Shown piece by piece: positions 11,030 through 54,151 of a stretch of DNA of 64,000 bases. A program made the position numbers and the translations under genes. Location: positions 92,816,001-92,880,000 of the forward strand of contig NC_087472.1 in assembly GCF_036321535.1 (NCBI RefSeq). The letters run 5' to 3'. Position 1 is the stretch's first letter. Each line of letters opens with the position of its first letter. Below the pieces are notes generated by a model. That model was not told the origin of the DNA. It saw only the letters and a program-made list of their open reading frames with translations, and made no database searches. The DNA is from Camelus dromedarius (lineage: Eukaryota).

Positions 11030-11780
11030 CCCAGGCACTGTGCAAATCATAGACTGTTCTCAACTCAACCCTACAAGACAGATTCCACTATTTACAGATA
11101 AGTAAACTAAAACTCAACAACTAAATCACTTGTTCTAGGTCTTACAACAAGTTATGAAATAGGGTTCTGCTTTATGCTGATGTCTGTGTGAGCATCATAC
11201 AAATGTTTTCCACAATATTGCAAAACTTTTAAGAAATCATTTTAAAGATTATGTGCTGAGTAATTTTAAAAAGGAGAACCTACATAAATGGAGGTGAAGA
11301 TACCACCGTAAGATTTTAAAATAAGAAGTGGTAAGTGCTTAAACTAGGGTAAAATTGATGGGTAACAACATATAATGGGAAGAGAACTAAATTGGGCATA
11401 CAGAATCATAAATGCTAGTTGTGAAAATAGATGACCTTTAGCCTTTGAGATTAATGGTTTGATTCTTTAGGCTAAAAAGGGAAGGATAAATTGAGCAATA
11501 TTTTGAAAGGTACATCAAGGATAAGGAAGAAATCGCAAATAAACAATTACAATTCTCCATTAATAATTACTTTCTTCTCAGGAAGAGTACTTCACAGATT
11601 ACAGTGTTCTGTTATGTGTATCATTACATTTGATTTATACCAAAACCTTAAGGTAAAGAGATTTAGTGTATCTATTTTATAGGAAAAGAAATTGAGATTC
11701 CTAAAGATTAAGTAATAACTGAAGAAATAATAGAATCTGAGTCTTCTGACACAAGTAGGGTCTTTCCATTCTTCAAGTTG
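11030..11780 (-). mobile_element. Two MIRs (~11030-11190, ~11570-11780) flanking a probable L2 fragment
   Basis: ccaggcactgtgc...tttacagataagtaaactaa and attttataggaaaagaaattgag MIR cores. Confidence 0.6.
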
Positions 11781-12477
11781 CCTCTGCTACTTAACAAATT
11801 GTGCTGCTGTTTGCCACGTAGCAGTATAGAATCTAATGATCTGGCATCTGCAGAAGTGAAATTATTTATCTGGGCACATCCAATCTCCTTGAGTGTCTTT
11901 TGAACACTTATACTATTAACCTACTCTTCCTTGTGGTAATAGCCACTTGTAATGTGTACTCTACATTCTTGGCAAAGAATGTAAAATACTTCTCTTACTC
12001 TTCTTCTCCAAAGAAAACTCAGATTGACTCCACCAATTAAATCTAAAACATACACTGTGTTTTCCACTACATAACAGAGTCCATCTGACTGGACTACTTC
12101 AAAATAAAATTTGAGAATAGAAATCTAAATGTCTTCCAATGCAGACTACAGAAAATGAAATTAGGAAAATATATTTTTATCTTTCTATTCCTTGCATCAA
12201 ATGCAGTGCAAATATAAGCAAGTACTTAAAATCCAATGAATTTGTTGAACTAGGGATCTACTACTGTCTCCTTATGTGCCCAGAGCTTGCACTAAACAGC
12301 ATTATCCTTGGGCCTATCTTTGGCTATCATCTTACCCAAGAATAGCTTTGAGAAATCAATTATAGATTTCAGCACCCTTTACTGATATTTTAATTCGTTT
12401 GTTCCAATAAATCATAGTTTAACCATCTTCAGCTAGTTGTTAGCTACCTTCTCCTCACATAGTTTTTCATTTTGCAG

Positions 12478-12907
12478 AATCTTACTTGCAGATCATGTCC
12501 CAATGAGATGTTCTGCCAGTCTCTATGTAGACAAATGAAATTTGTCATTCTTACTATCCAACCTAATTGATCACATACACCAAATAAATTTCAATCTGAA
12601 TATTCTGATCAGACATCCTCAAGAATACCCTCGTTTTGGAAAGAAAGAACATAAGATAAACCCCTATTTTAATAGGAAAACTAGGAATTTAGAACAACGA
12701 GACTCTCACAAAGATTAGAATCAGCTCTAACTACAAAGAAATTATGAAACAGCCACTAGGACCAAAATTCTTCATTCATTCAAGAACTGTATTGCAAAAT
12801 TTCTTTCTTTGTGCTGATAAGAAAGCTAAAGGATGTAGAATACTTACAAAGCATGGCGAAAAAGAAAGACCCTATTTGCTGACTAAGATGAGGCGAAGAA
12901 CTCAAAG
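12478..12907 (+). pseudogene. Fossil exon containing an RGS-like N-terminal half
   Basis: Acceptor tttttcattttgcag| and donor AAG|gtgatt. 12729-12773 reads NYKEIMKQPLGPKFF. After a frameshift at ~12774 it reads FIQELYCKISFFVLIRKLKDVEYLQSMAKKKD...GEELK. Compare RGS ..ll..P.G...F..FL..E...ENI.FW.....K......L..KAKKI. Confidence 0.65.
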
Positions 12908-14025
12908 GTGATTGGATTGGACAGTGTTCTGTTTTATATCACAAGTTACAGATCTTCATTTTACTTTCTGACATTCAACAAAACAAGATAAGGAATCTCT
13001 TGGCAAATTGTTTTACTAGAGTCTGTTTACCCACCTAAAATATTTGCATAGACTTCAAGGTTTGTGAAGCACGTTTAGATAATTACCTGAAGGCCCAAGA
13101 TACGACTTCTTTTCAGAGATCTTCTTTAGCCACTCTTGAAATCTATAACAATCCTACCCAGATACTCCTTATCACTTACTTTTTTTTTTGAAGGGGGCCA
13201 TATCACTTATCATCCACTAATCTACTACTTCTCCGTCAGGTACGATCCATGAGATTAGAGATTTTGTTTTGTTCTCTGATATCTCCCCAAAAGAGTGCCT
13301 GGTCCATAATAAGGTACTTAAGAAAAATCTGTCAAATAAGTAAAATAATGTTAACATGAACTAGATTTCTGAAACTGAGTTTTGGGGGGCCAAATTGTTA
13401 TGTCTTGTAGGACATTCTAGATCCCATAAACTAGTTTTTGATGTTATTTTAAGGATTTTTTTTAAGTTGGAAAATTAGAACAGTTAGATATTTGGAAATA
13501 AATGATGCAAAAGAAATAATTTTGTGGTTGTAAATGCTATTCACTCTTTTTCCTTCTGCTTTTGCAGCTATCTGAGTAGATTTTTTTCCTTTCTTCTTTC
13601 TTTTCATTTTTCTTCTTTCCCTCTCTGCCTCTTTCCTTCCTTCTTTCTATTTGGGCTTTTTAAAAAAATTTCTTACACTTTCACTTGAATGTGAACTATA
13701 TGAAGACTGCAACATAGTCTATCTCATTCAATTTATAATACCAGTGACTGGTAGAATGCCTGACGCACAGGAGGTATTTAATACATTTTTAAATAACTGT
13801 TTTATAATGAAGGGACTGTACATCCAAGTGTTAATATTACATATTTGCTGTTTCTCTAAGAACCAAAAAAGAAACACTGAAGAAGAAATAACATATTTTA
13901 CCTGAGAATATCTTTACTAAAACAAAATGCTAAAGTTAAAATTATTGGGATATAACCATTCCTGTAAATAACCACTGAATGTGTGCATTATTTGCTCTTC
14001 TATTTTTTGTTCTCTTAATACTTAG

Positions 14026-14239
14026 ATGAATGAAAGGCCATCAGAAGCACTGAGGGCTCCAACAACTCCTCCATATTGCCTCAGATTTTCTGAACACCTA
14101 GATCGCTTTTGTTAAGTGTTTCATAAAACTCGTTTTTCACAGTATTCAAAGAAGTTAATGGGATGGATGATGGTGAAGCAATATTTAATGAGATTAAGAG
14201 GAGACGTTGAAGATGAGGAGAGCAACGGCAGATGATGTG
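14026..14239 (+). pseudogene. Fossil exon containing an RGS-like C-terminal half
   Basis: Acceptor ttttttgttctcttaatacttag|. Its phase-1 join to the 12907 donor gives DE*KAIRSTEGSNNSSILPQIF*TPRSLLLSVS*NSFFTVFKEVNGMDDGEAIFNEIKRRR*R*GEQRQMM. Most stops are TGA, consistent with CGA deamination. The donor (14240 or 14243) is weak; both options are phase 2. Confidence 0.6.
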
Positions 14240-14394
14240 GTAGTAATTTTCATGTGGAATTATGCCTATTAAATTAGCAAATGAAATGGATGATGTTCAT
14301 AGTCCACGGCACGCATGTACCTCACATAGTGTCTGCATTTACGGAAAATCCTCTTCAATATAACATTTGCATGGGAGAGGAAAGCCCAATGAAT

Positions 14395-15830
14395 ATTCAT
14401 TCATTCATCCAACATGTATTTATTGTGTGCCAACTACATGACAGATAAACTGATCTAACCAGTAAATGAAAAATGTTCCCTTCTCTAATGGAGGTTACTT
14501 TCTAGTGGGAGAAGACAGATTAAAAAGTATCAGACATAACGAGTTAGTAAATTGAATACGATTATTGAAGATATACTAACCTCTAAAGCAGAGTAGGGGA
14601 AATGAGAAATGCCAGAGATGGGAGTGGAGGGTTGGAGGGTTATAGTTTAAAATTAGAGCATGAGACGTATTACAAAGATGACACTTGGGCAGAGACCTGA
14701 AGGAGATGAAGAAATTATACGATTATATATGGGAAACATATTTTAAGAAGAGAGAACACTAAGTGCAAAGCCTTACAGTGGGAGTGTGCCCAGCATGCAT
14801 TAGAACGGTGAAGAGGCACTGTGGCTAGAACAGCATGAATGACGGGGAAGTAGTAAGAGATGACATACGAAAAACAATGGGGGCTAGTTTATATAAGGCC
14901 ATGTAAGCCATTATAAAGACTCTGGCTTTTACTCTGTGATATCTGGGGACCCATTGCAGGCTTTCAAGGAGAAGATTGATGATTTTATTGACATTTGGCT
15001 CCTGTGTTGAGAACAGATTAGAAGTAGGGAAGAACAGAAGCAGGCAGACCAAATTATCACTACTATAATCCAGAAGAGAAATGATAGTCATTTAGACTAG
15101 GGTGGTACCGGTGGAGATAGTAAGAAGCAGTCATCATTTGGATCTATTATGAAGGTCAAACCAACAGAATGTGAGGGCTGTTTGATGTGGAGCATGGCAG
15201 AATGAGAGAAATGAAGAATGACTCTAAAGTATTTGTCCTGAATGACTGGAAGGGTATGGGTAAAACCAGCTTTTGAGGGGAATATCAGGTGTACAGCTTT
15301 TGGACATTCTAAATTTCAAGTTAGTCCTCCAAGTGAGAATACTTAGTAATGAATCAGATGTACATGTCTGGAATTTGGGAGCGGAAGTATCAATTAGCCA
15401 AGTGTCAGCAATAACACAGTACTGAAAATCATAGTACTGCATGAAATGACCAAGGAGGTGACTTGAGAAGACCACCAAGGAATGAGTCTGGCTTCTTCCA
15501 TCATTCAGAGTTCTGCAAGAAGAGACAAAATCAGCAAAGACGACAGAGAAGGAGCAGTCAGTGAGTCTGAAAGGCAACCAGAAGATTGTGGTTTCTGGAA
15601 GACAAGTGAAGACATTTTATCAAAGAAGTGGGTGATCATCTGTTGCAGGTAGATCAAGGTCTGAGAACTGGATTAAATTTAGTAACATGGAGGGCACTGT
15701 TATCCTTGGCAAGAACAGCGTATTTGGAGTGGTACTTCTGCAAACCAGATTAGACTGGGTCTAAGATAAATGGGAGGACAGCAAGTATAGACAACTCTTG
15801 TTTTACTGCAAAGGGAAGAAAAGAAACAGC
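14395..15830 (-). mobile_element. L2 LINE, ~1.4 kb
   Basis: Starts attcattcattcatccaacatgtatttattg and continues as antisense L2 (ggactctggcttttactctgtga, ggatctattatgaagg). Confidence 0.9.
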
Positions 15831-17400: not shown

Positions 17401-17590
17401 ATTTTACCGTCAAAGCGGGAAGAAGTTAACATGGCAACAAAAGCAGACTTCACTGACAGTGAAGGACATGGAAAAATACTAGCTAGCAATCAGTCATTGT
17501 CTCTTCAATGCAGTCACTTAATTTTTCATACCCAGGCCTACCAATAGAGTTAAGAGAGAATATCTCAAAGCATTAAAACAGTTTGTATGC
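17401..17590 (+). pseudogene. Probable terminal exon of the fossil gene
   Basis: Very strong acceptor ctttctccttttttttttcccctccag|. The phase-2 frame FYRQSGKKLTWQQKQTSLTVKDMEKY ends at TAG 17480-17482. ATTAAA at 17572-17577 is followed by GT/T-rich sequence. Confidence 0.5.
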
Positions 17591-19562
17591 TTCCTCTAGG
17601 ATGTTTTTCTTTTTTAATTATGAAAAAGACAAAAAAAACCTAAAATTAAATGGAGAACAAATGAATGTGACAAATATTCTTTTAAAAGAGTATCTGTGAC
17701 ATGGTAATTGTATACAATTAAAAGCTCTGAAGTTGGTGATCCTATTTTGAGACCTCTTAATATGGGGATATCATTATTACATCAGCCACCTACTAGTTTA
17801 TCACTAATACACCAATTAATCTTTTGAGTGGTGTGCATTCTTACATGAGTCACTTCCTACTTGCTGTCATTTCACCAACCCTTAAATTGATCTCTGTGGC
17901 CCTAAGATCAATTACACTTAAACCAACGTGTAAAACCTGGCACGTTCATTAATTAAAGTCAAATTTACACTTCTGTAATTGAGACTAATTATTTGTTTGG
18001 TTTAAGTTGTTAGGCATTCATTAAAGCCACTGGTCAGAGGCAGTGAATGAACATAGTTTCAAAGTCTATATATATATTAAAATGATCAGGCTTGGGACTT
18101 CACAAAAAGGAAATCTTTCTGAGCTGAAACCTATAAAATAAATCTTAGGTTCTTACTCAAGTTAATGCATGGATGTAAAAGAATGAAAATTATGGCATGA
18201 CAACATTTCCCTAACATAAGCATCACAACACCACAGTTCAACAAGTTTAATTCATTATCCAAGAAATTGGAAAATATCGTTAGTTTTTTTCTTTGTTCAT
18301 TTTACTTACACAGTACCTCTGTCAACAAGACATGGCTATTGAATAAGTATATTTGTTCTATGTCACTTAATATTGCAGAAAGTGTAGCCAAAAAATCTAT
18401 TTAAATAGCCATTGTTCTGAAGCACTTATCCTCTGAACATATAACAGTTACATACCCAGTAATAAAAAGGAAAGAAATCATAACTTAAAAGTGAAAAGAA
18501 GTTTATATAGCCTTTTCTAACTATACACAATGCTGGATGTGTAAGAGATACCTATGTTTAAGAAGAGATACTTCAGGTCATCCAAATTACTGAGGCCAAT
18601 GTGTGCTGATTAAGTTAAGCAGGGGGATTTCCAGTGATAAAAATTTTCATTATTATGCTGCAATCTTAAAGTTCTCAAAGGAATAGCTGAGACAGCAATA
18701 CAAAGTTCAGCAAACGGATGAGCTTTCTGAAATAGCAGTGTTTTACTAGCTTTACAAATGCCACAACAAATATAAAACTGATTTTTAAGAAAAATCATAA
18801 TTGAAACAAATGAGGAAAATCCTCTATTAGAAACCATGATAAAACAATTTCAAGTCATGGTAGTATCGTTTTTTAAGAGAAATATTAAATAAAATAGAAT
18901 GATGTTTAAGCATAAAAGTTTGCCACTGGATTTGACCTGTATTAAAATAGAACAGTACATCATGTACATTTAAAATTAATCTATTTTAAAATGACTAAAA
19001 GTTCATTCTCACAAAGATACAGGCCCTTAATTTAAATTTAACTTTTCCCTTTTCTTTCCAAAATCTAATTTTTAAAAAATTATATTTCATAAACTTTTAG
19101 ACTAAATTTACTCAAGACCATCACTGAAAATATCAAGTGCTAGGGTGGGCAACTACTGTAGTCAGTAGTTGACTTTCATATGTTTAACTTCCTAACAATC
19201 CATCCTCTTGCATATTTATGTAATCTCACCTTAAAATGACCATTCATGTGACAAATTTAGACGTCCATGTATCAGCTGAAGAACAAATATTTCAAGCTAT
19301 AGCTGGCAAGCCCACTTACCCACAAATAATTCCACTGCTAGTGTTGCCATATTCACTTGGAAAGTAGCAATTTCCAATTACTTGAATGTTTTATCTCAGT
19401 GGTTTGCAAATTGTGACCCACTGAACATTGGAATTACCTCTTAGAATGGAGAGAGAGCCAAGCTAGAGGCTTCCAACTCATATTTTAACCAAATTATATC
19501 CCCCTTCATCTGTGAAACTTACTGTGATTCTGGTAGACTTTGAGGAAATGATTCCACTCCCT

Positions 19563-21511: not shown

Positions 21512-23362
21512 TATCCTGTATAAAGATGAATACATACATATTTCTTATTACAGAGTATGGATTTTTAATTCAGAAAATCATTTTTTTCTCTTCAGGAAAC
21601 CCAGGTTAACAATTCTTTAGACAAAGGCAAAATTTCAACCTGTTCCAATGGCTATTAAGTGAGCACTGACTAACCAAAATGGACACCGGTATTAACAACA
21701 GTACGGCCCTGACACTACGTACTCCCTGATTATGAACGCTCTTCTCAGTACTCATACATACAGGAAGTTAAGCTTGGTGCACCTTCTCTTAGTCTAGAGT
21801 TCAAGAACTTCACACACAGGCAGAAAGCCAGTCCCTCACTGCTCTGGTCTATCTCTGGTCACGTTGTACACAGAACTTACACATCTGGAATGCCATCTAG
21901 TTTTATATTCTGATTAGTCAGGTCAAGCCATACCATCTGGTAAATATTCTGAGTGTAGTTCATCCCTGGTTATATGTTAGGGAAAAAAAACAACTTGGGA
22001 GAAAAATAGTTGTATCACATTTAATCAAAGTAAAAAAAAAAATCACAAAATCTTATCACATTCATTCTATTATTTTAAGAATGTTCAACATAACATCCTG
22101 AAAGTTTCCCTTTGAATTACTATTTCAAGGACCTAATATCTTTTTGCATGGACCATTTTCATTCCTATATTCTAAACTAAAAAGTAAGTTATCTTCTAAA
22201 AATCAGATGAGCTTGGTCAGCTTCCCATTTACAGGTACTCTTCTATAACATCTTTAATTGGGCAACCTTATCTAGAATATGAAAGTGTTTCCAATCCTCA
22301 TTAATCACTGGGTTAAGTTTCTTTGAAGTTAGCAGTTTCCTCAGCATCTTGGCCTTAGACATATCCCTTGTTTATATAATATTTATTATTATTAAGATCC
22401 CTTTATCTTTAATAATTCATCATAAATCAATCCCTTTGGTTCTTAAATAATTTAGGATGTTTCTATGCTTTCCTCTGGATGATTTTGTGCTCCTCTATAT
22501 TTCATAAGAGCGTATATAACCTATTTTAATGAACTCTTCAAACAGATCTACTATCTTTCCTTCATGCACTAATTCTGGGGTCCTATCTAGAAAAGCTATT
22601 AACTTTGTACTCAACAGGTACTCCCTTGGCTATTACATAATCATAATGGAACCAAGCCTTCCCCAATAGAAATTATATATATGTACACATCTGAATTTCT
22701 ATATATATACACACATATACATATATACACATTTGAAGATATATATAATCTGAATTTACAAAAATAATATGTTTCTTATATTCAATAAATTACCCTCCCC
22801 AAAGCATTTTGGTCAGTCTGAGAAACTATTTGCTAACTGCAAAATGAAAGTCAGTTATTTTACATTTGCACAAATTAAAGTTTAGAAATGATATAATTAC
22901 AGTCATTATAGTAGCAGGCAAAACATTTGAGATGAGCAAATTAGAATATCTAATAAGGTGGCGAGATTGGGCTGTAAAGCACTAAGATTAAAAAAAAATC
23001 AAAACATTACAAGGAAAACAATATGAAAGCTTCCTCAATGCCTACTCAGGGAAAAAGATTTTTAGAGCAGCAGATACCCAAATATTTATAATAGCTATAA
23101 CGTCTACAAGATCAATATAATGTAGCATGGAGCGGCAGGATTCCTGAGGATGTGAATAAGTTTGCTACTTAAGTTATTTGTATCTCAGTGTCTTCATGTA
23201 TAAATGAGTTTATTCATTGTGTGAATTAAGTGTTTTGAAATATGGCACTGCAACACAGGAAGGTTCCAATAAATATACACCATATTTTTAGAAAATATAC
23301 ATGGAGATAATGTATTTATATTTTCCTACAAATATTACAGAATACTGTTTGCTAAGACTTTT

Positions 23363-23571
23363 CTATGTGCTTTGAGATTTGGGGCTCTTTCTTAATTTCT
23401 TAGAATGAAACAAAGTCATACAGTTTCCCTTTCGTGAAGGGTGGAATGACTTTTCTTCTGAATAAGCAAATTCTTCTAGGGATGTCTTCATTGAAAACAG
23501 TTTGAATCCCTTAAATGAGGAGCCTACCTGTCTAGAATACAAGTTGAACTGTGGTTGGTGAGAAGGGGTAT
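23363..23571 (-). other. Candidate downstream/terminal exon of the minus-strand transcript
   Basis: Acceptor tttattctttgcag| at 23572. There is an internal donor CAG|gtaggc (44-nt exon, 23528-23571), or an open frame TPSHQPQFNL...KLRKSPKSQST* running to 23363. Confidence 0.3.
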
Positions 23572-24099
23572 CTGCAAAGAATAAACTTTTCTCCCTCCCT
23601 CTCTGCGTAAAGGCATTGCCAAGACAAAAGTTGAACAGGACTTCAGACATCAATTCTATTTTATGTCCTTTGTGATTTCAGAATAGTTTAATAAACTACT
23701 GAAAACATAATCTCTCTGCTTACTTTGAAAGGAAAAGCTTTTCAAATAGTTATAAAGACACAGATTTGAGGATATCTGTACACATATAGAATAATATTCA
23801 ACAATAACTTTATAGTGTTATTTGAATTTACCAAAATAGTATAACTCAGGTGTAATAGGAGATTTGCGTGTAATTATCTTATATACACTGTAATGAGGAT
23901 CATTTCCTTTATTAAGGGATGAGTGGAAATAAAAAAAAAAAGAAGGAAACTTATCATTGGTCCTATTGATAATCCGTAAGGTAATAAAATTGAGGACCTA
24001 AGTCTTCTGGTCACAGTACTATTACTTTCACAAGGAGTTGAGTTAAGTGTGTTTGCAATCAGATTCCTCTGTTTCTGTAATGTATCTAGGTGAAGCAGG

Positions 24100-24350
24100 A
24101 CAGAACAGTGTTTAAGCATGTGGGCCATAGACCTCTGGTTTCAAATCACACCCTGTCATTTATCAATTTTAGGAGCAAATTACCTATTTTCTCTATCAGT
24201 GTTCTCATCTGTAAACTGCAGAAAATAATAGCATTGACTTACACAGGAACACTATGAGGATGACAGGAGTTACTTCCCATCTGCATAGCACATAGAGCTT
24301 TGCCGGGGCACGGCAGCACCGGGTAAGCATCACTTATCTGCTAAGCAGTA
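24100..24350 (+). mobile_element. MIR SINE
   Basis: cagtgtttaagcatgtggg...ttctcatctgtaaactg. Confidence 0.8.
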
Positions 24351-26433
24351 AAATTTGTTAAAATACTACTTAAGTTGCAATTTACAGTTCTATTTCTTTT
24401 AGTGAGCTTTATAATATACTTCACCTTCAAGTTTTAAGCCCATCACAATGCCCTCACATAGAAGACACTTCAAAAATACCAGTTGAATGAATGAATGCCA
24501 TCCCCAAAGGAAGGTGTATGTTTGAACTTCAAGCATCAGAGTTTCTATCTGAAACAAATGAAGTGCATTAACACTTTTGGTTCGTGACATTAATAATCAA
24601 GTAATGAGTATTATTAAATAGAACTAAATTATTATCCTTGATTCTCCCTTTTCTTCAATAATTTCTTGAGCATAATATCAGTATGTGCATAACGTTAAAA
24701 ATTTGGAGTCATCTCAGACCCCCTTTTACACATGAGAAAAGTAAAATGCATGATCACACATACCATGGTCCTATCCTCACACATACCATGATCCAGAATT
24801 ATCACTAAAATTGTTTAATTCAAATGCACTGTATAAAATTCATAATTTTCCCAGTGTTTCTAATAGTGAATCAAAATACTTATCTGAAACTATTAGCCAT
24901 GCTTTCTTCACAAATTATTTAAAAATGAGTGAACCGTAATAATCATGAGCATTAAGTATTGCTTCCTTGATAAAAATAACTTTAAAAAATAAGCATAACA
25001 ATAAAAAATAAGCAATAACAAAAATTACTACCTGACACAGGAAGACTCTCTTTTTTCCTTCCACTTTATTACACAATCCTTTCCTGAATTTAACAAAAAA
25101 AAAATGAATAAATGGTCGCAATTTTTAATGCTCTTAAAACTGTCACAAAGGAGATTGTCATATTATTCCCTCAAGAGGCCCATACCAACATACAGATTAT
25201 ATCATAACACAATCATAGTTTACTTTTGCTCATGATTTATTCTTAGAATAATCCACTATTCCATCTTGCTAATTATCCTCATGTTAGCATTTTCACTAAG
25301 GGACTGGGAATTTTCTGATCTTATGAGTGAGATAGTAGTAAAAATCAGGGTCTTGTAAGATTTTTCAAACTTTTATAATGTGTGTGAAAATTATTCTTAA
25401 CAGGAAAGATGTGCAAGTGAATCCATCTTGGTATGGACACTCCCAATACTTCTAGACGTCCTATGACGTCTCAGCTTCCTGCAGTATAGTTCTTTGTGAA
25501 TGTTTATGTATCTGATTGTGCTATTAAAACCAAATCTTATCTTGGATCTAAGCAAATGTTTCTCTTCTAAAAACACACAGAGATGGAGCTAGACGCCAAA
25601 TCATGTTCCATTTACAACAAACTAGAAATATGTGTTGTGTGCCTTTGTATAGAATAATCAATGTACCTTGTCATACATACTTATTTTAACTTTTTTCATA
25701 GAAGCATGGACAGGTCTCCAAAAATCAGTCCTTGTATATGTTTATATAGGTTAAGTAATCTCTCAAAACAGAAAATTAAAAGGTAATATTTGCACTAACA
25801 AGCAGAAGGTCATTTAGTGTGCTTAAAATGCCATAAACTAGAGAAAGACTAGAAGGGGAAAAAATATGTGACTGAAAAGATATTACTAAATTCTGATGTT
25901 GCTCCAAAATCAGCAAATATGTATAACTGTAACTATTATCACAGCAGCCTTGTTTTCCTGTGTCTTTAATTTCACAAATGGCACTTAGTGCTGACAGACT
26001 GACACTCCCTGTCAACTACATAATAGAAATCATCAGGAGCATATGTGAGCAAGTTAGTTATTTCTTGGAGACAGCCATCAGCAGCTGGGTAGGTTGGACG
26101 TGGAAATTCAACTGGGTTTCTCTCAACTCTTCATAAATATGCATTTTACAATTACATGGCAGGGTAGTTTTAAAAAAATAAAGGAAAATAAGAGAGAATG
26201 ATTTCAGGTGGAGGGATTTTTTTTTTTATTACAAATGAATGTATTTAAAGAGTTTGGGGGCAAAAAAATCACAAATTACTGGGCAATTATTTGAGAGTTA
26301 TTATTTGCATTTTTCTTCAAGAATTTCTTTTTCAACTCTATTTTTCAGGTAGTATGTGTTCACTCAATAGGAAAAAATCCTATGATCAAAGCTAAGGAAT
26401 AAAATTGAAACAAAAAAATTACCTCTGAAGACA

Positions 26434-26515
26434 GATATATATATATTTAATTTATATATAATTATACATATAATATTTATATTTAATTTATATATAATTA
26501 TATATTTTATATTTC
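26434..26515. repeat. AT-rich/(TA)n low-complexity tract
   Basis: Seen directly. Confidence 0.85.
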
Positions 26516-27049
26516 TATTCTCTGTTGATTTTCAGGAGCAAAGTAGGCTAAAAATTCCTCCCTCCCTCTCACACGTACGCTGGAATGTTGCTATTAGAGA
26601 AGCAGATTCTCGCAAGCTGTCCTGACCTTTAATCTGCTCCACTTGGCAGCAATGAGATGTAACACCTTTCTACTGTTCAAAGAGAAAAAAGCTGGCAAAA
26701 TTGAATTGTGTCTTGTTTTTGTTTCCTCAAGAAGCTAATAATCAATACAAACTTTATTGGAGATCATCTGAGTTTGTTTCTACTTAATGAACAGTATAAA
26801 TGGGCAACATTTATGAAGAAATTTAGATTTTTAGGACAGTTTGCAACATTTATATAAAAGAATATCTAAAGTTTACATGAAATAAAAAAATCTACTTTTA
26901 GCCATACCACTATTTTTATTTTCAGCTATTACTTCAAGTGTATGGTCCTTAGCTCCCCAACTAGAGGATATACTTGAACCCAAAGCCCAATCTAATATTC
27001 TGCATATTATTGTCAAATCTTATGTATAATTTATACCTAATAATAATGA

Positions 27050-27290
27050 TGATGATAATATAAATAAAATACTTATTTTCTGTTGAAGCTTTTCCATGAG
27101 GCAGGTCCAGCACTGAGCTTTTTCTAAGAACACTGTGTATTATATATTAGTATCTTTATGTGATAGATGAGAAAACCAGAGCGAAAGAGAATAATCAGTT
27201 GTGAGGTCCACAGTGAATGGGTATACCTTTGTTAAATCCAGTTCAGAGTCTCTGTTCAAAGCTGTTATAACAACATTTCCTAAATTCCTG
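27050..27290 (-). mobile_element. MIR SINE
   Basis: tagatgagaaaaccagagcgaaagaga core. Confidence 0.65.
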
Positions 27291-28619
27291 TGATCATATA
27301 GCTCCTTTCATGAAAAAATATGTGAAAGTATGCATGATCTCCCCTCCAAGCAAAAAAAAATTTAAAAGGAATGAAATGTTGGTTGATTATTGTGAAACAT
27401 ACACAAGTGTTTGAAGACTTTTATTTGTTTGCAAACAATAGTGGGAAAGGATTCTCATCCTTGGTTCTGAAATTTAGCACCTAAAACATCTCTAAAAGTA
27501 CAACTGGCCTGACCAAATTAGACTCAGATAAATTATTTTATATATCTTTATCTATCTGTATGTGTATATTTCTTTTTCTTTGCTTGCAAAGAGCTGCTGT
27601 TTCTTTCATTTAAACCACAAACTGCTCCAAGTCAACCAGCCAACCAGAGAAGATTCTGTTTCACGTTTAGCTTGATAAAATGAGATGCTACATTCATAAT
27701 ACTTACAAAATTCCAATAAATTATGATTTACAAACATACAATTTGCCTAAGTTGAAGGAAATTTTGTCTCTTAAATTTATTTTACAACTTGCTATGATTT
27801 TCCCATGGCAAGAGATTTTCCCAGTGAACTATATATAAAAGCTTTTGCCTACAAAGAAATTTCATAGGTGGAATGGCCATCTCCTGTTTGTGATACTCTT
27901 TTAACTCATGCACTGAAAAAGCTCCAACGTTCACATAAATTCCCTCTTGTATTTTACAGCAAAATCATTTTTTAAAAGATAATGAAATAAGCCCTATAAG
28001 AAATGATCAATACCTAATTTATTTTAACTTTATGCATACAGTGAATTAGACATATTTAATTACTTTATTTCATTTATAAATTTTTATGAAGGATGAATAT
28101 GTGAAAACATTATAAGATGTAACAAACCAGCAATCATCAAATAGAAGGTCATTTATAATTGTTGCAGAAAGAAAGTCACGCCTTAATGCTCTGCACTGAT
28201 GTGTCTCAAGAACCAAAAACAGTATCAGGCATAAAATAAATAAAAAGTATTTACTGAGCAAATTAGAGCCATGAATGATTTCTCTTTCTCCTTCTTGGCA
28301 TTCTTGATTTGGCATTCTATTTCTAAAGAAAAAGTATTGCATAATAGTAAGGACAATTTAAATTTACTTAGTGATTTTCCCACACACAGTTTTTAATATA
28401 TTTCGAAAGAAATAATGTCCTTAACAATGACGTATTTATCGTATGAGTTTAGGAACACTGTCAGAGAACATGAACATTTCAGGAAGTTAATTTTAGGAAA
28501 TGCTTCATTCCATTATTTTGTCTCTAGATATAATGAAACACCTCAAAAATTCTTGAAAGTATTTTGAAGATCACTGAGTCTCCAAATACTGTCAAAGAGG
28601 GGGAGCAGGAAATACTTAC

Positions 28620-28845
28620 ATTTCCAGCTGCTTCCTTACCAACCCTGAAAAAAAAACCCCACTCATCACATCTACCTCTTCAATTCTCAATCCTGAAGCT
28701 CTGGGATCAAGACTTTGTAAAGCTCCATGAATGGTTTTCATGAGATGAATGCTTATTCGAAGCTTGCAGGTGGCAGGTATGTGGGAATAACCATAGGCAG
28801 GACCATGAACAATATAAGACACATTTGCAAAATACCCTCTTCTTT
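28620..28845 (-). other. Candidate 226-nt exon of an unidentified minus-strand transcript
   Basis: Acceptor tttgctattttcag| and donor AAT|gtaagt. One frame is fully open (RRGYFANVSYIVHGPAYG...GLVRKQLE). An internal acceptor ttttttttcag| would give a 25-nt exon at 28620-28644. No recognised homology. Confidence 0.3.
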
Positions 28846-29203
28846 CTGAAAATAGCAAAGTCTCAGACATCCATACTGCTCATCATTTCTCACAACTTTC
28901 TGTACCAGTGTGCAAAACGTATTGCTGAGTTTCAGTAGGTTTGACAATGAATACATTAATCCTAATTTTTCTACTTGCAACACTGCTCATGGGGTTGCGG
29001 GGAGGCCTTTCCTTATGTCAGGTTATTTCTCTGAGTAAACAGAAACTCCTACCAAAAGTCACTATATAGATATGTGCATAGTTTAGTGTGTACATGGATT
29101 AGTGTCTTGGTCTTACTATCTGATTTTTAAAAGGAAATTATTATATACAATTATAAAGAGATGAGGCACTGAAATTTCACTCAGATTAAGAGGTATAATT
29201 TCC

Positions 29204-30222
29204 AAAACAAACAACCCAATCCAAAAATGGGCAGAAGACCTAAACAAGCAACTCTCCAATGAAGACATACAAATGGCCAATAGGCACATGAAAAAATGCT
29301 CAATATCACTAATTATCAGAGAAATGCAAATCAGAATTACAATGAGGTATCATCTCACACCAGTCAGAATAGCCATCATTCAAAGGTCCACAAACGATAA
29401 ATGCTGGAGAGGGTGTAGAGAAAAGGGAACCCTCTTACACTGTTGGTGGGAATGCAGTTTGGTGCAGCCATTATGGAAAACAGTGGAGATTCCTCAAAAA
29501 ACTAAAAATAGACTTACCATATCTCCCAGTAATTCCACTCCTGGGCATATATCTGGAGGGAACTCAAACACGAAAAGATATACACACCCCACTGTTCACA
29601 GAAACACTATATACAATAGCCAAGACATGGAAGCAACCTAAATGTCCATTGACAGATGACTGGATAAAGAAGTTGTGGTTATATTTATACAATGGAATAC
29701 TACTCAGCCATAAAAAAGAATAAAATAATGCCATTTGCAGCAACATGGATGGACCTAGAAATCATCATTCTAAGTGAAGTAAGCCAGAAAGAGAAAGAAA
29801 AATACCATTTGATATCACTCATATGTGGAATCTCAAAAAAAGAAAGAAAGAAAACGACACCATGAACTCATCTACAAAACAGAAACAGACTTGCAGACAT
29901 AGTAAGCAATCTTATGGCTACCGGGGAAAGGGAGTGGGAAAGGATAAATTTGGGAGCTTGAGATTTGCAAATGTTAGCCACTATATACAAAAATAGATTT
30001 AAAAAATGTTTCTTCTGTATAGTGCAGGGAACTATATTCAATATCTTATAATAAACCTTTAATAAAAAAGAATATGAAAATGAATATATGTATGTATATG
30101 CATGGCTGGGACATTGTGCTGTACACCAGAAATTGACACATTATAACTGACTGTACTTCAATAAAAATAAAACAATGTAAAGTGTGGGAAAATAAAATGT
30201 TGCCTGACAAACAAACAAAAAA
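29204..30222 (+). mobile_element. Young 5'-truncated L1 (ORF2 C-terminus + 3' UTR) with 16-bp TSD
   Basis: ORF 29273-29641 is the L1 ORF2p C-terminal region ([50 protein letters not shown]), followed by a frameshift. TSD aagaggtataatttcc (29188-29203) / aagagatataatttcc (30223-30238). Confidence 0.95.
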
Positions 30223-31879
30223 AAGAGATATAATTTCCTTTCTTCCTTCCCTCCTCCCTTTTTATAAACTTTGTAAATCTGTGCTGCCCAGGTCTCCGCA
30301 TGTGCTGCAGACACAAAGACATGTGAGACTAGTTCTGTTCCTGAGTTTCACAATTAAATAATCAAATATGGAAGAAAGATAAAAGTAGCTAAAATGTTAG
30401 GAAGAAGAAAATGGTCCAGGAAAGGCCTGGACTCTAAAGAAAGGCAGATAATGATGCAGAGTGTAAGCTGGGGAAAGGAGACAGGTTTTTAAATAGGTAA
30501 GTAGGGATAGAAAGTTAAGACTTTTCAAGCAAAACAAGAATAAGAAAGAATATAAAAATCACTGGGAGACTTCAGTAAATCTTCAGTGAAGCATTTGTAA
30601 GATAATCATAAAAATATAACACTAAAGCAATAAAGTTATGTATAAATGATAACATTGACCTACTTAAAATGTGTGATAAAACTGTTCAGAAAGCTGTGAA
30701 AGCTCATTGAAATTCACCTTTACAAGATATGTCTATTAAAATGATATTGGCATTTCCTGCTGTGTATGTTATTCAGCTTCTTGGAAGTTGAAACTTTACA
30801 TCTCAATCAAGGTTCACCTTCAAATCAGTAGAAATTTCTAGGGAACAGTCAGGACTTGGGGGGAGGGGGGCTTTTAAGCCATTATCTGATGCAACTGACT
30901 GCCTGCCTTCCACTCTTCTATGTGGATTGTCCTCCAACTCTGATGTGCTTATTAACCAAATATTATGTATTAATTTGGGAGCAGAATGCCTTTGGCTCAT
31001 TACTATCTTCAGTCATGCTCATGAAAAAGGGAATTTATTAGAAAATAAAAAATCTGAGACAAGATAAGGAAATCCTAGACCCAATCTTTGTTGCTCGAAG
31101 TTGCCATGATTCACAACCCAACATGTATAACATTTCAGGGCTTTAGATTCTTTCTTCCACACAAAAAAATATTAGACACAATATTAAACTGCCTTTTCAA
31201 ATACATATGGAGCATGCATCAAAATTATTTCTGAAGCTAAGGCCCTTTATAAGGTAAAATCTCTAGATTCTTATTTAATTAAAAGGCAAGTAACACTAGA
31301 TACATATTCAATAGAAAACTATTTTTAAATGCATTATAGAATAAGCAATTTTTAATCTCTTTGGATAACAGCCAAAATAGAGAATTCCACTGTTAAATAT
31401 TCTTTTTAATGATAAGCATGAAATTATAAAAAGGGAAGAAATTACTCAATATGGATATTCTTATGTTGTGTCACTGGAAATTATATAAAATATTAAAACA
31501 TGGCGAAAATTCTAAAACTTATAAATATGCCTTTTAAAAAATAGCCTCAAACAATACACAAAGTTAACTCTATTATAATACTATGAATAGGATTCTGGCA
31601 ATTATAATTCAGTTTGGGTTCTTATTATTATTCCTATTAAGTAACTTTAGACACATACTGGTGCCAAGGGTGAGAATTAGTTCAGATAGCAGAGAATCTT
31701 TGCTGCACAATGTTCTTAGAGGAATAGACAAGGAGCATGGTTCCACTGGGTAAATCAAATTACTTCTCTTACCAAAAACATCCAATGGTTCCCCATCTTC
31801 TATGTAACATAAAATAGCACATTTCATTATGCTGTCTTTCAAGAATCACCATGATTATTGCACCATTAATTTTTTGTTT

Positions 31880-32492
31880 GTTTTTGCAAAACAAAGCTTA
31901 TTTCTTGCTCCCATTACATGCCCATCACAGGTTGGCATGGAGCTCAGCTCTTCATAGTCACTCAGGGCCTTGGGTGGAGTGAAAGAAAAAAACTGACAAC
32001 CCAGAATCCCATATACAGAGAAAATATCCTTTAGCAACTTCTATAATCACTAGGGCAGAGAAATGGGATGGGTGGCTTTCTCCAAATTATTCCCAGTCTT
32101 CCCAGTGAGAGCCAAGTGGGGTTCCTGGAAGAAAGGCCTGGAAAAGCATGAGGCTCCCCTCAACCATGACTGTGGCCCCAAGAAGCAGCACTCACTCATC
32201 CTAGCCCACACTCAGTCTACAGCAATTCATCAGAATTTCTAATTTAATGTTCCTTACAGGCATATATGGTCTCTGGAGGATTCTGCCTCAGGTAAGCAAA
32301 TGATTCAGTCTGTGTCCTCCTGCAGGCACCTGCCTCTCCAGGTTTGGGTCTAGAAGTTGGCTCTGAGAACTCAGTTCTTTGATGGGTCCAAGAAAGTCAT
32401 TGATAACTTAGCTTTACAAGCTTTCTCTTGTTTGAAGGGCAGGACTGATGACTCCTAAGCTTCCTTAGATGTCCAAACTAAAACCGGAAATC
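31880..32492 (-). mobile_element. MaLR fragment (~31880-31970) plus antisense ancient L1 (L1MC/MD-like) 5' end (~32060-32492)
   Basis: ttatttcttgctcccattacatg (MLT1-like); ...tgatgggtccaagaaagtcattga...aaaccggaaatcc is the reverse of an L1M 5' terminus. Confidence 0.6.
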
Positions 32493-32659
32493 CTCTTGGC
32501 CTGCTAGTGTATTTTTAAATCACAAAACTATACTTCTGTCATAAAAATAGTTAGATATTCAAAGTCCTCCTTCTTTGCCAGGCCCTTAAAGTCCCCCTAG
32601 CTAGAGGTAAAGATGATTATCAATATGGTGTAAATCCTTTCAGACCAGTCTGGGACCTC

Positions 32660-34140
32660 ATACTATTGGAGATTTCCAAGGCTCAGTCTTCAGACCTCTT
32701 TCTTGTCAATCAACCCTCACTCCCTTGATGATCTCATCCAGTCCCACAGCTTTAATATATTTATTTATGCTGACAACTCTCAAATTTATACCTTCAGTCT
32801 AGACTTTATTACCAAATTCAGACTCATATATCCTACTGCCAACTCGAATCTTTAGTTTGAAATAAAATAGAAATCAAAGACTAAGTTTTCCCATCCAAAT
32901 CTTCCCCACCTGCAGAATCACCATTTCAGTTGAAACTCCATCTTCCACCTACTCAGGCTAAATGCGTTGAAATTATACATGACACTTCCCTTTCCTGTAC
33001 ACTCTACATTCAATCTGTCAGGAAATTATGCTGATGACTCTACCTTCAAAAGAGATCTAGAATCTGACCACTTCTTTCAATTTCCACTGCTAATACCCAA
33101 ATCTGAGTTACCATCATTTCTTGCCTGGACTGGCATAACAGCCTCTTAAAAGGTCTCTTTGCTTCTATCCATGTTTCCCCACTCCTTCTCCAACTTGGAT
33201 GTTTCTCAACACACCAATCAAACTGATTCATTTAAAATATAAGCTAGATCAAGTTACTCTTCTGCTCAAACTTCTGCAGTGACTATTTCACTCCATGTAA
33301 AAGCTAAATCCTAACTGTAACTTGCAAGGCCCTATCCAATATGGTGGCCACCAACCACCTGTAGCTACTGAGACTTAAAATGTGGCCAGTCCTAATTGAG
33401 ATGCACTAGAAGTGTGAAATATGCACCATAGTGCAGTCTTAGTACACGAAATTTAAAATATCCCATTAATATTTTATATTGAGTACATGTTAAAATGATA
33501 GTATTTTAGATCTATCACCTTAAATAAATACACTATTAATATTAACTGCGCATTCCTTTTTCTGCTTTTTCAAAGTGGCTACCAAAAATTTACAATTTAC
33601 ATATATGATTTGCATTATATTTGTTTTGGATAGTCCTGTTCAATATAACCAGAACCCCAGTTAACTACCCAGCCCCCTCTCATATAATGTACTCTTCCCC
33701 TCACTTCCTCTACACCAGCTTTCTTGTTGTTCTTTGAAAACCGGGCATGTTCCCACTTTAAAGCCTATGTTTTAGATGCTGTTCCCTCTACCCAGAGTAT
33801 ACTTTCTTTTTGGTGTTTTCAGCTTTTCAGATCTTTGCTCATTTCTCACCTTCTACATGAAACTTACTGTGACTATCCCATTTAAGACTGTCTCTACCTC
33901 CCCTATCTGCGCACCCCAATCTCATTTATCTATTCTTTCTTTTTTGCATGTACTTATCACCTAACATATTACATTATTTACTTATTTATGATGCTTATTT
34001 TTAGTGTCTGTCTCCCCTCCAAAATGCAAGCTTCACAAGGGCAGGGATCTTTGTCTGCTTGGCTCACTACCGTATTCCATGTACCTGAACAGTGGCCAGC
34101 CCACAGTTAGGGTTTCATAAGTGTTACTTGACTTGATTAC
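32660..34140 (+). mobile_element. L2 LINE, ~1.5 kb span, interrupted by MER33
   Basis: gatctcatccagtcccacagcttt...tgctgacaactctcaaattta...3' end aagcttcacaagggcagggatctttgtctg. Confidence 0.9.
33326..33639. mobile_element. MER33-like hAT-Charlie DNA transposon
   Basis: tatccaatatggtggccaccaaccacctgtagctactgagacttaaaatgtggc ... tatatttgttttggatag. Confidence 0.8.
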
Positions 34141-36774
34141 ACCTAATTTTATAATACAATCATATTATACATATTAGTCACTAAATCACTTATTTTTTCA
34201 ATGCACAGCAAATCACAACCATCTCTCAGCGTCAATCAAAACAGATGAGACTGTCTTTTAAACTACTCCATGGTATGACAGATTACAATTTAACAATTCT
34301 CTTTTTGAACGTCATTTATGTCATTGTCATTTTTTCATTTTTACAAATAATATAGTCTAAGTAATTCTGTGGAACGCATTCCTGTATGTGGAAAGGCTGA
34401 GTCAAAACCATGTACATTTTAAATCTTAAGGTGCTGCAAAATAGCTTGCTTAGAAACCTGTACCCATCTCTGCTCCTACGTATCGTCAACTAATCTCCTA
34501 CTCAAAATCACCTAGATTAGAATTGCTACTCATTCTTCCACCCACATATACACCTAATATGCCATTTTAATTTCCTTCAAGCTGCTGCTTAAAGCATTAC
34601 CACTTTTCACCATCTCCCCACAACCCCACCCCCGGATCCACACACTATCAAGACCCCACCCAGTTCCCTCTTCATTCATCTCTATCACATCCCTCATTCA
34701 AGGTTAGGAAAATTCCTTCCTGTTTTGAGAAAACTGGTAATTCTTTTCTTCATCAATACAGACTAATGTTATAGGCACACAAACTCCAGAGTCAGATTAC
34801 CTGGGCTCAAATTCCTGCTCTATGGTTAAACTTAGTGACCTTGTGCTTGTTAATCTCTCTATACCCCATTTTCCTCATTAAGAAAAAAAATATGCAACAA
34901 TATATTCCACTGAATCTGTGATTATTTACTTAATTACCACATATGAAGTATTTGGGGTTGTCTGTTTTCTATATGTGTATCCTAAATGCACTCATTTTGA
35001 TTACAACACACTTGACACCTATTATCAATTTCATTCACAGATTTTTTTTTTAAACTGCTCAGATAACTGCAAATTCCTCAAGGATAGGCATTATGCCTTA
35101 TAATTAAATGCCTGACAGCACCTAACACTGTTCATTGTACAGAGAAGGCAATTAAAGCATATCTGTTGATCGACTGACTGTTTTACCTAGTCTTTTTGAG
35201 TCTTGCCATAAGGACATGTTTAGGAAATTACCTTAAGGATATTTTTAGGTGGGAAGAACTGACATCTTTTCCCACCCCGTCAAGTCCCTGAATAACCAAC
35301 AAGGCCTTTTCCTATGGAAATCTAGAAATTCTGAGGGTTTACCAGCAAAAAAGCAACACAATGGAAAATGCTTCTTTGCTGGGATACCTCTCCCATTCTC
35401 TCTGCACTGTAATTAGTCGAGCAGTCCTTTCTCAATGCCCACAACTCCATAGCAACTTGCCTTAGCTCCTCACTGTCGGGATGATCCCACTCCTATTGAA
35501 ACTGGTAGGGAGTCTGTGTGCTCCCTGGGTCAATGGGCTTTCTGACCAACACTAATTTTTTTTTTAAATTGCAGCTCCATTTCAGATATTCACTGAGATC
35601 TGGGGCTAACCCATGCTGCTTTGAAAAAAGACATTCTGACAACTGAACTAATGCATTTAGCCAAACACACCTCATTAAAGCCAATGAAAAATGTGCTACA
35701 AAAATCTCCATTCATGGTCCCACATTCTCCCCTCACTATGTGCATGTCATTCCTATCTATACTGAGTCAATGGAGAGGAGGAAAGACCTTTAAATATTTC
35801 TCTTTTAGTCATCAGCTCAGATTAGTTTTATAAAAAGCCTTCTCTATGACTTTGGACTAAATATGAAGCCATATACTGCAGTTAACATCATCTGGGTCAA
35901 GCTCATTCACAGTAATGTCACCATTTCTCCTTGGCAGCACCGCCACCAAAGTAGATTTTCAAGGGTTTCCCCCTTGAAATTGTAACAGTTTAAAGAAGAC
36001 TAGTCTGTGGTATAATCTATTCTATATACTCTGGGCAACCCTACATAAGTTTGAAGAGCTCCCTTTAATATGGTAAACATGTTTCTGGAGTATTAACTTA
36101 GGTAGCAATCATGTCTGGGACATGCTAGCTTACTAAGCAAACTATATAATGTGTCCTATTTGCACAGGTACTATCTGAGACACACAAAAACATCATGCAG
36201 GCCTGGAAATCACGATGCTTTTAATTTCACTGGGAAGAAAGGATACGCATGCTAGAAAAGATAATCCTATGGAAAACTGTCTCAACTAATTGCCAAAGAA
36301 GTCAAAAAAAAACACGTGCTGTGAGAGTCCAGAAGAAGGAGAGGCCAATTGGACTAAGTTGTTTGGGCAAAGCATCAGAAAGAAAGCGAAGGTCATCTTT
36401 CTGGGCTTTGAGAACTGGTGGGGGAAAAATTTAAGAAGACAAAGGACACAACCAGGTAGTAGCAGTGGCTCTATATAAAACAGATAGTGGGGGAAAAATA
36501 AAACAATGGCATTCATTTTTTGATTGGATGTGAAGACAAAGCCAAAAATTTTAGAAGTGGATAAGTAGGAAACTGATTGCCTAGTTGACCCAAATAAGGA
36601 AGAGGTGGGGGTGGGGGTGGGGAGGCACTCTGGAGGGTCAGAAAAGTTTGGTGTGAAACATGATGAACCATAAAAGGGAGTGACCTTTCCATTTTCCTGA
36701 TGTTCTGTTTTTCAATTTATTTGAAATTAAGAATACATTTTGGTACTAACAAAAGCCAATTTCTATTCTCCTTC

Positions 36775-36981
36775 TTTCCCAGAGCAACTCTGTACCCAAA
36801 GGGACAGTCAGGAATGCCTGGTGCTATCTTAGGTTGTCACAATTGGAGGAAGCAATGCTACCAGCATCAAGTGTACAGAGGCCAGAGATGCAGTTAACGT
36901 TCTACAATGCAAAGAACAATCCCGCACAACAAAGAATTATCTGGCCCAATGTGTCAACAGCGCCAAGGCTGAGAAATCCTG
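36775..36981. mobile_element. MER20 hAT-Charlie DNA transposon
   Basis: ggttgtcacaattggag...gaggccagagatgc...acaaagaattatctggccc...gccaaggctgagaaatcctg. Confidence 0.9.
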
Positions 36982-36984
36982 CAC

Positions 36985-38090
36985 TCATCCAGCTACCAGT
37001 GTCTCTTGCTTGTACCACTGCTAATGACTCCTCGTGGGATGCTCTCCTTGTACCACTCCAATCTGCTCTCCATTAAACACCCGAGTAATCTTTTTAAATG
37101 TAAATTTGACCATGTCTCTCCTTTACTTAAAAGTCTTTTCAATTTGTCCCTGCTCTTTGGATACAGACTCAGGTTTTCAATATGATCTAAAAGGCTAGGT
37201 ATAAACTGGACCCTACCTATATGTGTGGCTTCACCTGTTATCACTATTTTTCTTACTCCCTTTACCTTTTTTAGAAGTGCCAGGCTCTCTCCTACCCACA
37301 GGACCTTTACACTGCTACTTCCTTCAGCCTGGTATGCCTGCACCTAATGTCCTCCTACTAAATCTTTGAGTGACACTTCTTCAGAGTAGCCATCATGGAA
37401 CCCACTTGACTTCCTCTTACAAGTTTTTATACCAACCTTTAGTTTTTCCTCCATAGAATCTAACAAAACGTGTTAATACGTGTCTTAGTTTGAGTTTCTA
37501 TGAAATGCACACTGAGACAATTTGAGTGCAAGTACCTAAGTGGGAAGTGATCCCAGGATATATTGTTTGGGATTCCAAGGGAGCCAGGGAAGAAAAGAAA
37601 GTCCATCACATCAAATAAATTACCACCACGGGCAACAAAAGTCGAATTCCTCTGGGGAAATCTGAGTAAAAAGTAAAGATCACATCTCAAAACTATCCCA
37701 AATGAGGGACTAGGTAGCTGTGTATTCGTCCAACATTCCCCATTCATCATTGCTTGAGGGCTGCCCCCAGGGGTAGGAATGCTTCAGTATATAGGGCTTA
37801 CCCTGCACATGGGCCAAGTATGCTCTCATTTCCAGAAACAAAAACCCTCAGGTAGAGATATACAGGCATTCAAAGTAAACAGTCTTTGCTTCACCAAGTG
37901 CCAAGGGCATGTGGATGGGCATCAAGAGCATCTATCTGCCACAATGGATGTTAATATAACTATTTATCAATGTCCCTCTTCCCCACTGGATGTGACAAGA
38001 CATGTTGGTTTTGCTAACCAATGTATACATCAAGGCTAGCATAATGCCTTGAACAAAGGTAACATTTCAAAAATATCTTCAGATAAGTAA
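36985..38090 (+). mobile_element. L2 interrupted by an antisense ERVL LTR (LTR33-like, ~37480-37943)
   Basis: L2 (aaatttgaccatgtctctcctttacttaaaa) resumes after the LTR tgtcttagtttgagtttc...gagtgcaagt...tgatcccagga...tgccaca. Confidence 0.75.
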
Positions 38091-53570: not shown

Positions 53571-54151
53571 TTTTTTTTTTTTCAATTTGTTGCTGTTGGG
53601 TTTTATTTATTTATTTATTTTTATTGAAGTATAGTCAGTTTACATTGTTGCATTAATTTCTGACATACAGTATAACGTTTCAGTTATACATATACATAAG
53701 TATATTTGTTTTCATTTTCTTTTTCATTATAAGTTACTACAAGATATTGAATATAATTCCCTGTGCTATACAGAATAAACTTGTTGTATACTTACTTTAT
53801 GTATAGTAGTTAGTATCTGCAAATCTCGAACTCCCAGTTTATCCCTTCCCACTCCCTTCCCCACCTTGCCACTGGTAACCCTAAGAAATTTTGCTTTTTA
53901 CTGAAGTATAGTTGATTTACAGTTAGTTTCAGTGTACAGCAAAGTGATTCAGTTATACATATATATACATATATTTTTTTTCTTTTCAGATTCTTTTCCA
54001 TTATAGGTTATTACAAGAAACTGAACATAGTTCCCTGTGCTATACAGTAGGTCCTTATTTATGTATTTTATATGTAGTACTGTGTATCTATTAATCTCAA
54101 ACTCCTAATTTATCCCTCCCCCACCCTTTCCCCTTTGGTTAACAATAGTTG
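53571..54151 (-). mobile_element. Two tandem L1 3' ends inside one 15-bp TSD
   Basis: Fragments at ~53600-53885 and ~53890-54151; TSD gaaaacagatttttc (53556-53570) / gaaaacaggtttttc (54152-54166). Confidence 0.85.

Follow-up and report, generated by a model that had tools for sequence, protein, structure and literature searches.

The deaminases of the AID/APOBEC family act on single-stranded nucleic acid, as set out in the accessible part of PMC5889660, and the same source has one vertebrate clade, NAD1, on record as lost in eutherians; its Table S1 defines this clade by an FNN motif in loop 1 and a YNN motif in loop 3. The GRKs, according to the available sections of PMC3307776, have an RH domain and an AGC kinase preceded by a short N-terminal region. 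The canonical RGS box is described in the available portion of PMC10148553 as a domain of ~120 amino acids, built of nine helices in two bundles.

The locus considered here belongs to a stretch of 64,000 nucleotides of Camelus dromedarius (contig NC_087472.1, positions 92,816,001 to 92,880,000), referred to throughout as the window. It shares with APOBEC2, APOBEC3G and NAD1 the succession of strand 3, PCxxC, helix 3 and strand 4, with a helix-2-like glutamate upstream. It differs from them in that its deaminase-like domain is broken over three frames, lacks an in-frame HxE and the loop-7 aromatic, has ~38 codons between the glutamate and the PC, and is apparently continued by further coding sequence in the same exon. 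With GRK1/7 and GRK4/5/6 it shares an apparent order of helical domain followed by kinase start, with four patterns typical of these proteins in sequence, but it yields no profile or PDB match to them and no catalytic kinase motifs, and a deaminase stands in place of the 30-residue N-terminal region. The join proposed between its downstream blocks is of the same order of length as a canonical RGS box (103 codons) and has a helical N-half; unlike that box, neither half matches an RGS family in Pfam and the C-half is not helical above background. Finally, placental mammals have fossil exons and unitary pseudogenes that resemble it in their collinear decayed exons, stops, frameshifts and neutrality since an early split. 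The features are as follows.

11471..11652, + strand: possible upstream coding remnant, an exon of its own or the start of a long exon; acceptor score 5.2, donor at 11653 score 6.8
11843..12160, + strand: stop-poor frame (3 stops in 106 codons) with a loop-1-like stretch and a helix-2-like motif; no Pfam match alone
12121..12342, + strand: AID/APOBEC-like deaminase core, with strand 3, PCxxC at 12190, helix 3 and strand 4; open over 74 codons; Pfam and PDB matches
12296..12724, + strand: linker, preceded by what is probably the C-terminal part of the deaminase (12302-12403, by eye); read in the third frame; 4 stops in 143 codons
12693..12908, + strand: open frame of 72 codons that contains YKEIMKQPLGPKFF and reaches the donor; no family or Atlas match
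12732..12907, + strand: N-half of the RGS domain originally predicted; two frames, two TGA stops, QPLG pattern at 12750; no RGS match
12908..14025, + strand: proposed intron of 1118 nt, predicted from sequence only; good donor, weak acceptor
14026..14239, + strand: second block, the predicted RGS C-half, followed at 14208 by a stop-R-stop-x-E pattern of GRK type; the donor at 14240 is weak (score 1.5); no match
17401..17584, + strand: candidate third exon, a GRK-type kinase start by eye; strongest local acceptor (score 15.1), followed by weak donors

The upstream deaminase-like core

When the sequence flanking the proposed exons was scanned blind with Pfam, seven models of the AID/APOBEC clan matched at 12046-12276 on the + strand, the best with an E-value of 0.0029 (one of nine queries, itself of 1000 aa). 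Taken by itself, the 74-aa ORF at 12121-12342 matches nine families, all of one clan, including SNAD4 (E 1.5e-4), APOBEC2 (4.6e-4) and NAD1 (8.7e-4), with every score below its curated cut-off (best 22.2 bits against 27). Of the ten PDB matches to this ORF nine are APOBEC3G, at a best E-value of 0.0015, and the nine clan families and APOBEC3G point to the same 44 residues. The controls comprised 74 candidate exons, which gave four unrelated matches (best E 0.012), and 14,760 residues of 22201-38002, which gave two (best E 0.07), all of them set aside as chance. The deaminase remnant is very probably real. Because this core sits on the same strand, ~460 nt upstream of the proposed exons, it is now likely that a gene, since dead, was once present; the original prediction of a formerly real gene thus stands, not through the splice phase and RGS domain order on which it was built.

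The motifs of the deaminase fold can be followed on both sides of the core. The cysteine part of the zinc site is present as the PCxxC at 12190, the sole one on the + strand (four in six frames), and the motif patterns that flank it each occur once in the window. Upstream, the stretch at 11966-12019 resembles loop 1 of APOBEC2 when compared by eye with the alignment in the available supplement of PMC5889660, and by the same comparison 12302-12403 looks like the last strand and helix of the family. The glutamate of the helix-2-like motif lies at 12077, in a different frame from the PCxxC, and a histidine is found either four codons upstream of it (12065) or out of frame by one base (12070); no HxE is in frame. 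The pattern E..[aromatic or stop]L.[aromatic][FI] is found twice in six frames, once at this site (11 times if relaxed), and its position 38 codons upstream of the PCxxC has a chance of ~0.001-0.008. The flanking deaminase-like parts have no family match of their own, and reading through the deaminase frameshift does not extend the Pfam match.

Assignment to a named clade is not made, since the scores fall short of the cut-offs, a Met follows the strand-4 match at the loop-7 position occupied in the family by an aromatic Tyr, and neither FNN nor YNN occurs in the three frames of 11843-12430; nor is NAD1 the top-scoring Pfam model for the core. The loss of the loop-7 aromatic may reflect decay. 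No second copy, as would be expected of a tandem domain, was found in 1272 tiles.

Further upstream, 11471-11620 has a frame with a single stop, and 11471..11652 as a whole has no Pfam match. A likeness at 11493-11627 (+ strand; PDB E 0.043, no Pfam match) to alpha-1,3-galactosyltransferase, in its C-terminal part, was rejected as chance or a separate fossil, and illustrates that chance can look as persuasive as the GRK patterns discussed below. A Mab-21 nucleotidyltransferase match in the linker frame at 12587-12850 (+ strand; E 0.056, no PDB support) was likewise set aside as chance.

The proposed exons and their RGS reading

The peptides quoted in the original prediction are correct translations of the DNA, and its splice signals lie where they were placed, with a GT at 12908-12909 following AAG and an AG at 14024-14025. 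The phase is another matter, as phase 1 holds only after an assumed frameshift. The phase-1 junction, which codes for Asp, belongs to the frame containing FIQELYC, and this is reached only via an assumed 1-nt frameshift near 12774; if no frameshift is assumed, 72 codons of the frame containing YKEIMKQ are free of stops up to the donor, the junction is in phase 2 and the reading ends at a stop after a single codon of the second block. Stop-free stretches as long as 12693-12908 number 90 in the six frames of the window. Over its 103 codons the repaired join meets five stops, where the window's stop rate of 0.063 predicts 6.5. Four are TGA (12880, 12889, 14031 and 14091) and one is TAA (14124), which falls outside the TGA>CGA repair that had been suggested.

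The splice sites were scored with a rough matrix. On this scale 72 of the 2937 GT sites on the + strand score as high as the donor at 12908, and 356 of 4281 AG sites as high as the acceptor at 14025, which is outscored by four of the 53 AG sites leading up to it. When equally strong donor and acceptor pairs 0.3-3 kb apart are joined with one free frameshift, 2168 of 2193 give five stops or fewer, a null that measures openness only and not RGS likeness. Phase compatibility alone hence carries no weight as evidence, and the agreement of splice phase with domain order, put forward as the strongest sign of a gene, is equalled by chance pairs. Decoy exons outnumber genuine ones approximately tenfold according to the available part of PMC3098058, and the window holds 77 acceptor/donor pairs (36 on the + strand, 41 on the - strand) as strong as that formed by the acceptor at 12478 (score 8.6) and the donor at 12908 (score 7.7). 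Three RNA runs labelled reproductive system contain 0.09-0.16 of the words of 12300-14400, a count of shared words that says nothing on splicing.

The RGS identity finds no support from profile or structure databases. The N-half, read through the break, and the C-half were scored separately, and neither matches an RGS family in Pfam at E-values up to 10 (the Pfam filters remove most matches above E 0.1) or an RGS or GRK chain in the PDB; alternative frames of the halves do neither better nor worse in these searches. In all, an RGS or kinase match came from none of 133 Pfam queries and none of ten PDB searches. The Pfam queries covered 9301-38002 of the + strand in three frames, except ~12910-13800 and 29163-30200, as well as 12301-14402 and 48499-48800 of the - strand, with the remainder represented only by the 74 candidate + strand exons. 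The original prediction had named as its refutation a repaired peptide that scores no better against RGS profiles than controls and, as no RGS profile or sequence match was obtained, this is the outcome at the resolution of the tools used. A heavily decayed RH domain could nevertheless escape such searches, as 45-60 heavily decayed residues can drop below detection and the halves were scored apart and without a positive control.

Other approaches to the fold give a similar picture. Ranked among 2904 equal pieces, the N-half stands at the 98th percentile for helix propensity and the C-half, which is ordinary, at the 34th. A structure predicted from the single sequence of P0001, a relative described below, has three helices but low confidence (pLDDT 53.9, pTM 0.22); it was not used as evidence, and the model has no Foldseek match. 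A PDB search with a profile of the open frame and three relatives returned no matches. The Atlas gave no usable match, with recognition at 1221 for the open frame and 1192 for P0001 against a mark of 2300, at which level a blank is uninformative. A weak Pfam match to DUF5043 (E 0.17) was set aside as chance. The RGS label of the two exons is only a resemblance seen by eye, without database confirmation, and the finding is not filed as an RGS domain.

Since GRKs carry an RH domain together with an AGC kinase, the proposed RGS halves could instead represent a GRK-type RH domain. The path from the deaminase to the donor is stop-poor, with four stops in 143 codons followed by the 72 open codons. 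Among GC-matched stretches, those equally stop-poor number five of 230 for 11472-12907, ten of 229 for 11842-12907 and 21 of 234 for 12047-12907, these ranges having been picked after the fact. Downstream, 17401-17599 (+ strand) has a frame with two stops in 65 codons behind the acceptor that scores 15.1, and the weak donor at 14240 is phase-compatible with this acceptor. Four short GRK-type patterns, matched by eye and written after the sequence had been seen, occur in order at 12750, 14208, 17405 and 17459 (two, six, two and one matches in six frames, respectively), the last two sharing one N-lobe-like frame. The 17401 block has no Pfam or PDB match, no kinase family was found in tiles of 17402-38002 or in the 74 candidate exons, and convincing motifs of kinase catalysis are absent from the + strand.

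Relatives and the age of the proposed decay

When 1.84 billion proteins were searched by phmmer with one frame of 12478-12909, two matched, neither of them an intact relative: one is an unnamed ORF of 69 aa (P0001), the other a nematode protein of low complexity. Word-based protein searches added three further short unnamed ORFs (one of nine and three of 80 candidates), and the broad protein search with the second block confirmed none of four candidates. These broad searches covered frames of 12478-12909 and 14025-14240. At the DNA level, 270 pattern matches in metagenome contigs yielded no confirmed relative and an exact pattern search had no matches.

The relatives P0003, P0004 and P0005 in the YKEIMKQ frame, and P0001 in the FIQELYC frame, align without gaps across 12774. 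Identical codons amount to 43 of 64 in P0003, 27 of 42 in P0004, 27 of 34 in P0005 and 36 of 55 in P0001, values equivalent to neutral drift at 10-20% site divergence. The base changes forced at codon positions 1 and 2 stand at 14:9, 5.3:10, 2:5 and 8:10 in the same order, and across 12703-12893, as judged from the protein sequences, there is no codon-position bias against any of the four. By this comparison, selection has acted on no frame since the lineages diverged. The frame at 12693-12908 is open in the camel and over 34-64 codons in three relatives, which is explained by the manner in which they were recruited, as called ORFs, whose openness is a condition of the call. In P0004 the frame shifts, and partway through the block P0005 departs from the alignment, interrupted there by a different sequence that we take to be a ruminant SINE.

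The TGA>CGA repair fares no better here, as the T of both N-half TGAs appears to be kept in P0003 and that of the first TGA also in P0001; any change of this type would hence be older than those splits. Either the 12774 frameshift and the stops are older than the split of camelids from ruminants, or there never was a frame, and the relatives do not discriminate between the two. Of the features by which unitary pseudogenes are recognised, disabling stops and frameshifts are present, and neutral divergence among dead orthologues is seen within 12703-12893.

Setting and competing explanations

By composition the window is mammalian non-coding DNA, with a GC content of ~35% and a CpG observed/expected ratio of 0.10-0.29, and scans for tRNAs and against Rfam gave no matches. 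Outside obvious L1 pieces the G+T content of the - strand is 51.9%; a figure of 52.7% is given for transcribed strands in the available part of PMC1391917, and the excess fits an intron of a long - strand gene. The available part of PMC12996724 describes a human 2.4-Mb deletion that covers DMD exons 57-79 to IL1RAPL1 exon 3. The window probably lies within an IL1RAPL1 intron, a host assignment reached by inference, and seven motifs of early DMD and IL1RAPL1 exons were not found in it. With a host on the - strand, the + strand blocks would be antisense to it.

The explanation that we tentatively prefer is a fossil gene of deaminase-RH-kinase-like organisation, which includes the proposed exons, died before the camelid/ruminant split and probably lies in the IL1RAPL1 intron. 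A zinc deaminase of AID/APOBEC-like type would have been encoded, together with a linker and half of a helical domain (the first), by one long exon running from ~11843 or perhaps 11471 to 12907. The second block and the 17401 block would have been the exons that followed, most likely carrying an RH domain of GRK type and the beginning of a kinase. We infer both the single-exon status and the splicing of the downstream blocks to it, and the RH and kinase identities are judged by eye only. In its living form the product would have combined the fold of a zinc-dependent cytosine deaminase with an RH-like helical domain, and perhaps also with a kinase. Neutral decay would have set in before camelids split from ruminants, and the DNA would make no protein now, with at most a decoy or minor splice surviving. 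It is quite possible, if somewhat doubtful, that only the deaminase remnant at ~11970-12400 is real, as a small fossil gene or an old retrocopy, and that the RGS join consists of chance decoy sites in neutral DNA. Database support is confined to the deaminase core, random pairs equal the join, the window holds 77 pairs as strong as 12478/12908, decoys exceed real exons approximately tenfold (PMC3098058), and neither an RGS nor a kinase domain figures in the descriptions of vertebrate AID/APOBEC clades in the portions available. The term RGS is absent from the main text of PMC5889660, as are both RGS and kinase from the available portion of its supplement. Yet a stop-poor path runs on beyond the deaminase to a strong donor, and GRK-type patterns follow one another in order across three blocks.

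An improbable account attributes everything to chance: the DNA would be ordinary intron sequence rich in A, the PCxxC match a lucky one and the splice sites decoys. With ~30,000 residues scanned, a best E-value of 0.0029 in a 1000-aa query is just modestly beyond chance, unrelated sub-threshold matches arose in four of 74 control pieces, comparison with the relatives gives no selection signal and the strand skew fits an intron of a - strand gene, in line with the accessible part of PMC1391917. It has to contend, however, with nine families of one clan and APOBEC3G agreeing on the same residues, with flanking motif patterns that each occur once in the window and with a helix-2-like pattern at a fitting distance. 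That a living spliced transcript, either a non-coding RNA or a small ORF, uses 12478-12907 or 12725-12907 with a downstream acceptor is most improbable: the scores of 8.6 and 7.7 and the openness of 12693-12908 in the camel and, over 34-64 codons, in three relatives speak for it, but those relatives are called ORFs, of which P0004 shifts frame and P0005 is interrupted, codon-position bias is absent and Atlas recognition of 1221 falls short of 2300.

Returning to the fossil gene, its fullest version is rather unlikely: an undescribed vertebrate gene in which a deaminase was fused to both a kinase and an RH domain of GRK type, nested antisense within an IL1RAPL1 intron on the X, lost in the placental ancestor and probably intact in marsupials, monotremes or reptiles. 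If true, the joining of a deaminase to a receptor-kinase scaffold would be an architecture that was not found in print, the locus would provide a precise syntenic address for a living gene in non-placental vertebrates, and one further loss of the AID/APOBEC type would be placed on the eutherian stem; should the deaminase alone be real, the locus is one more old pseudogene. The literature searched yielded no such fusion or locus, no paper on a unitary pseudogene together with an RGS domain and none that combines IL1RAPL1 with a nested gene and a pseudogene. The available sections of PMC3307776 make no mention of deaminase or APOBEC, and those of PMC5020398 contain nothing on a deaminase in Grk5l.

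Elsewhere, the - strand carries an exon-like block of 53 nt at 25033-25085 that is open in two frames and whose splice sites look good by eye, and, at 48560-48761, an acceptor followed by an ATG-started frame of ~29 codons that has no Pfam match. Repeats in the window include fragments that we take to be of LINE and other types, among them what is presumably an L1 5' end at ~1139-1900. Related L1 3' ends, mutually 72-86% identical, lie at 29165-30171, 52240-52440 and 53614-54133. A 72-bp inverted repeat (74% identity) occupies 44441-44645, and a 38-bp imperfect palindrome lies at 17665-17702.
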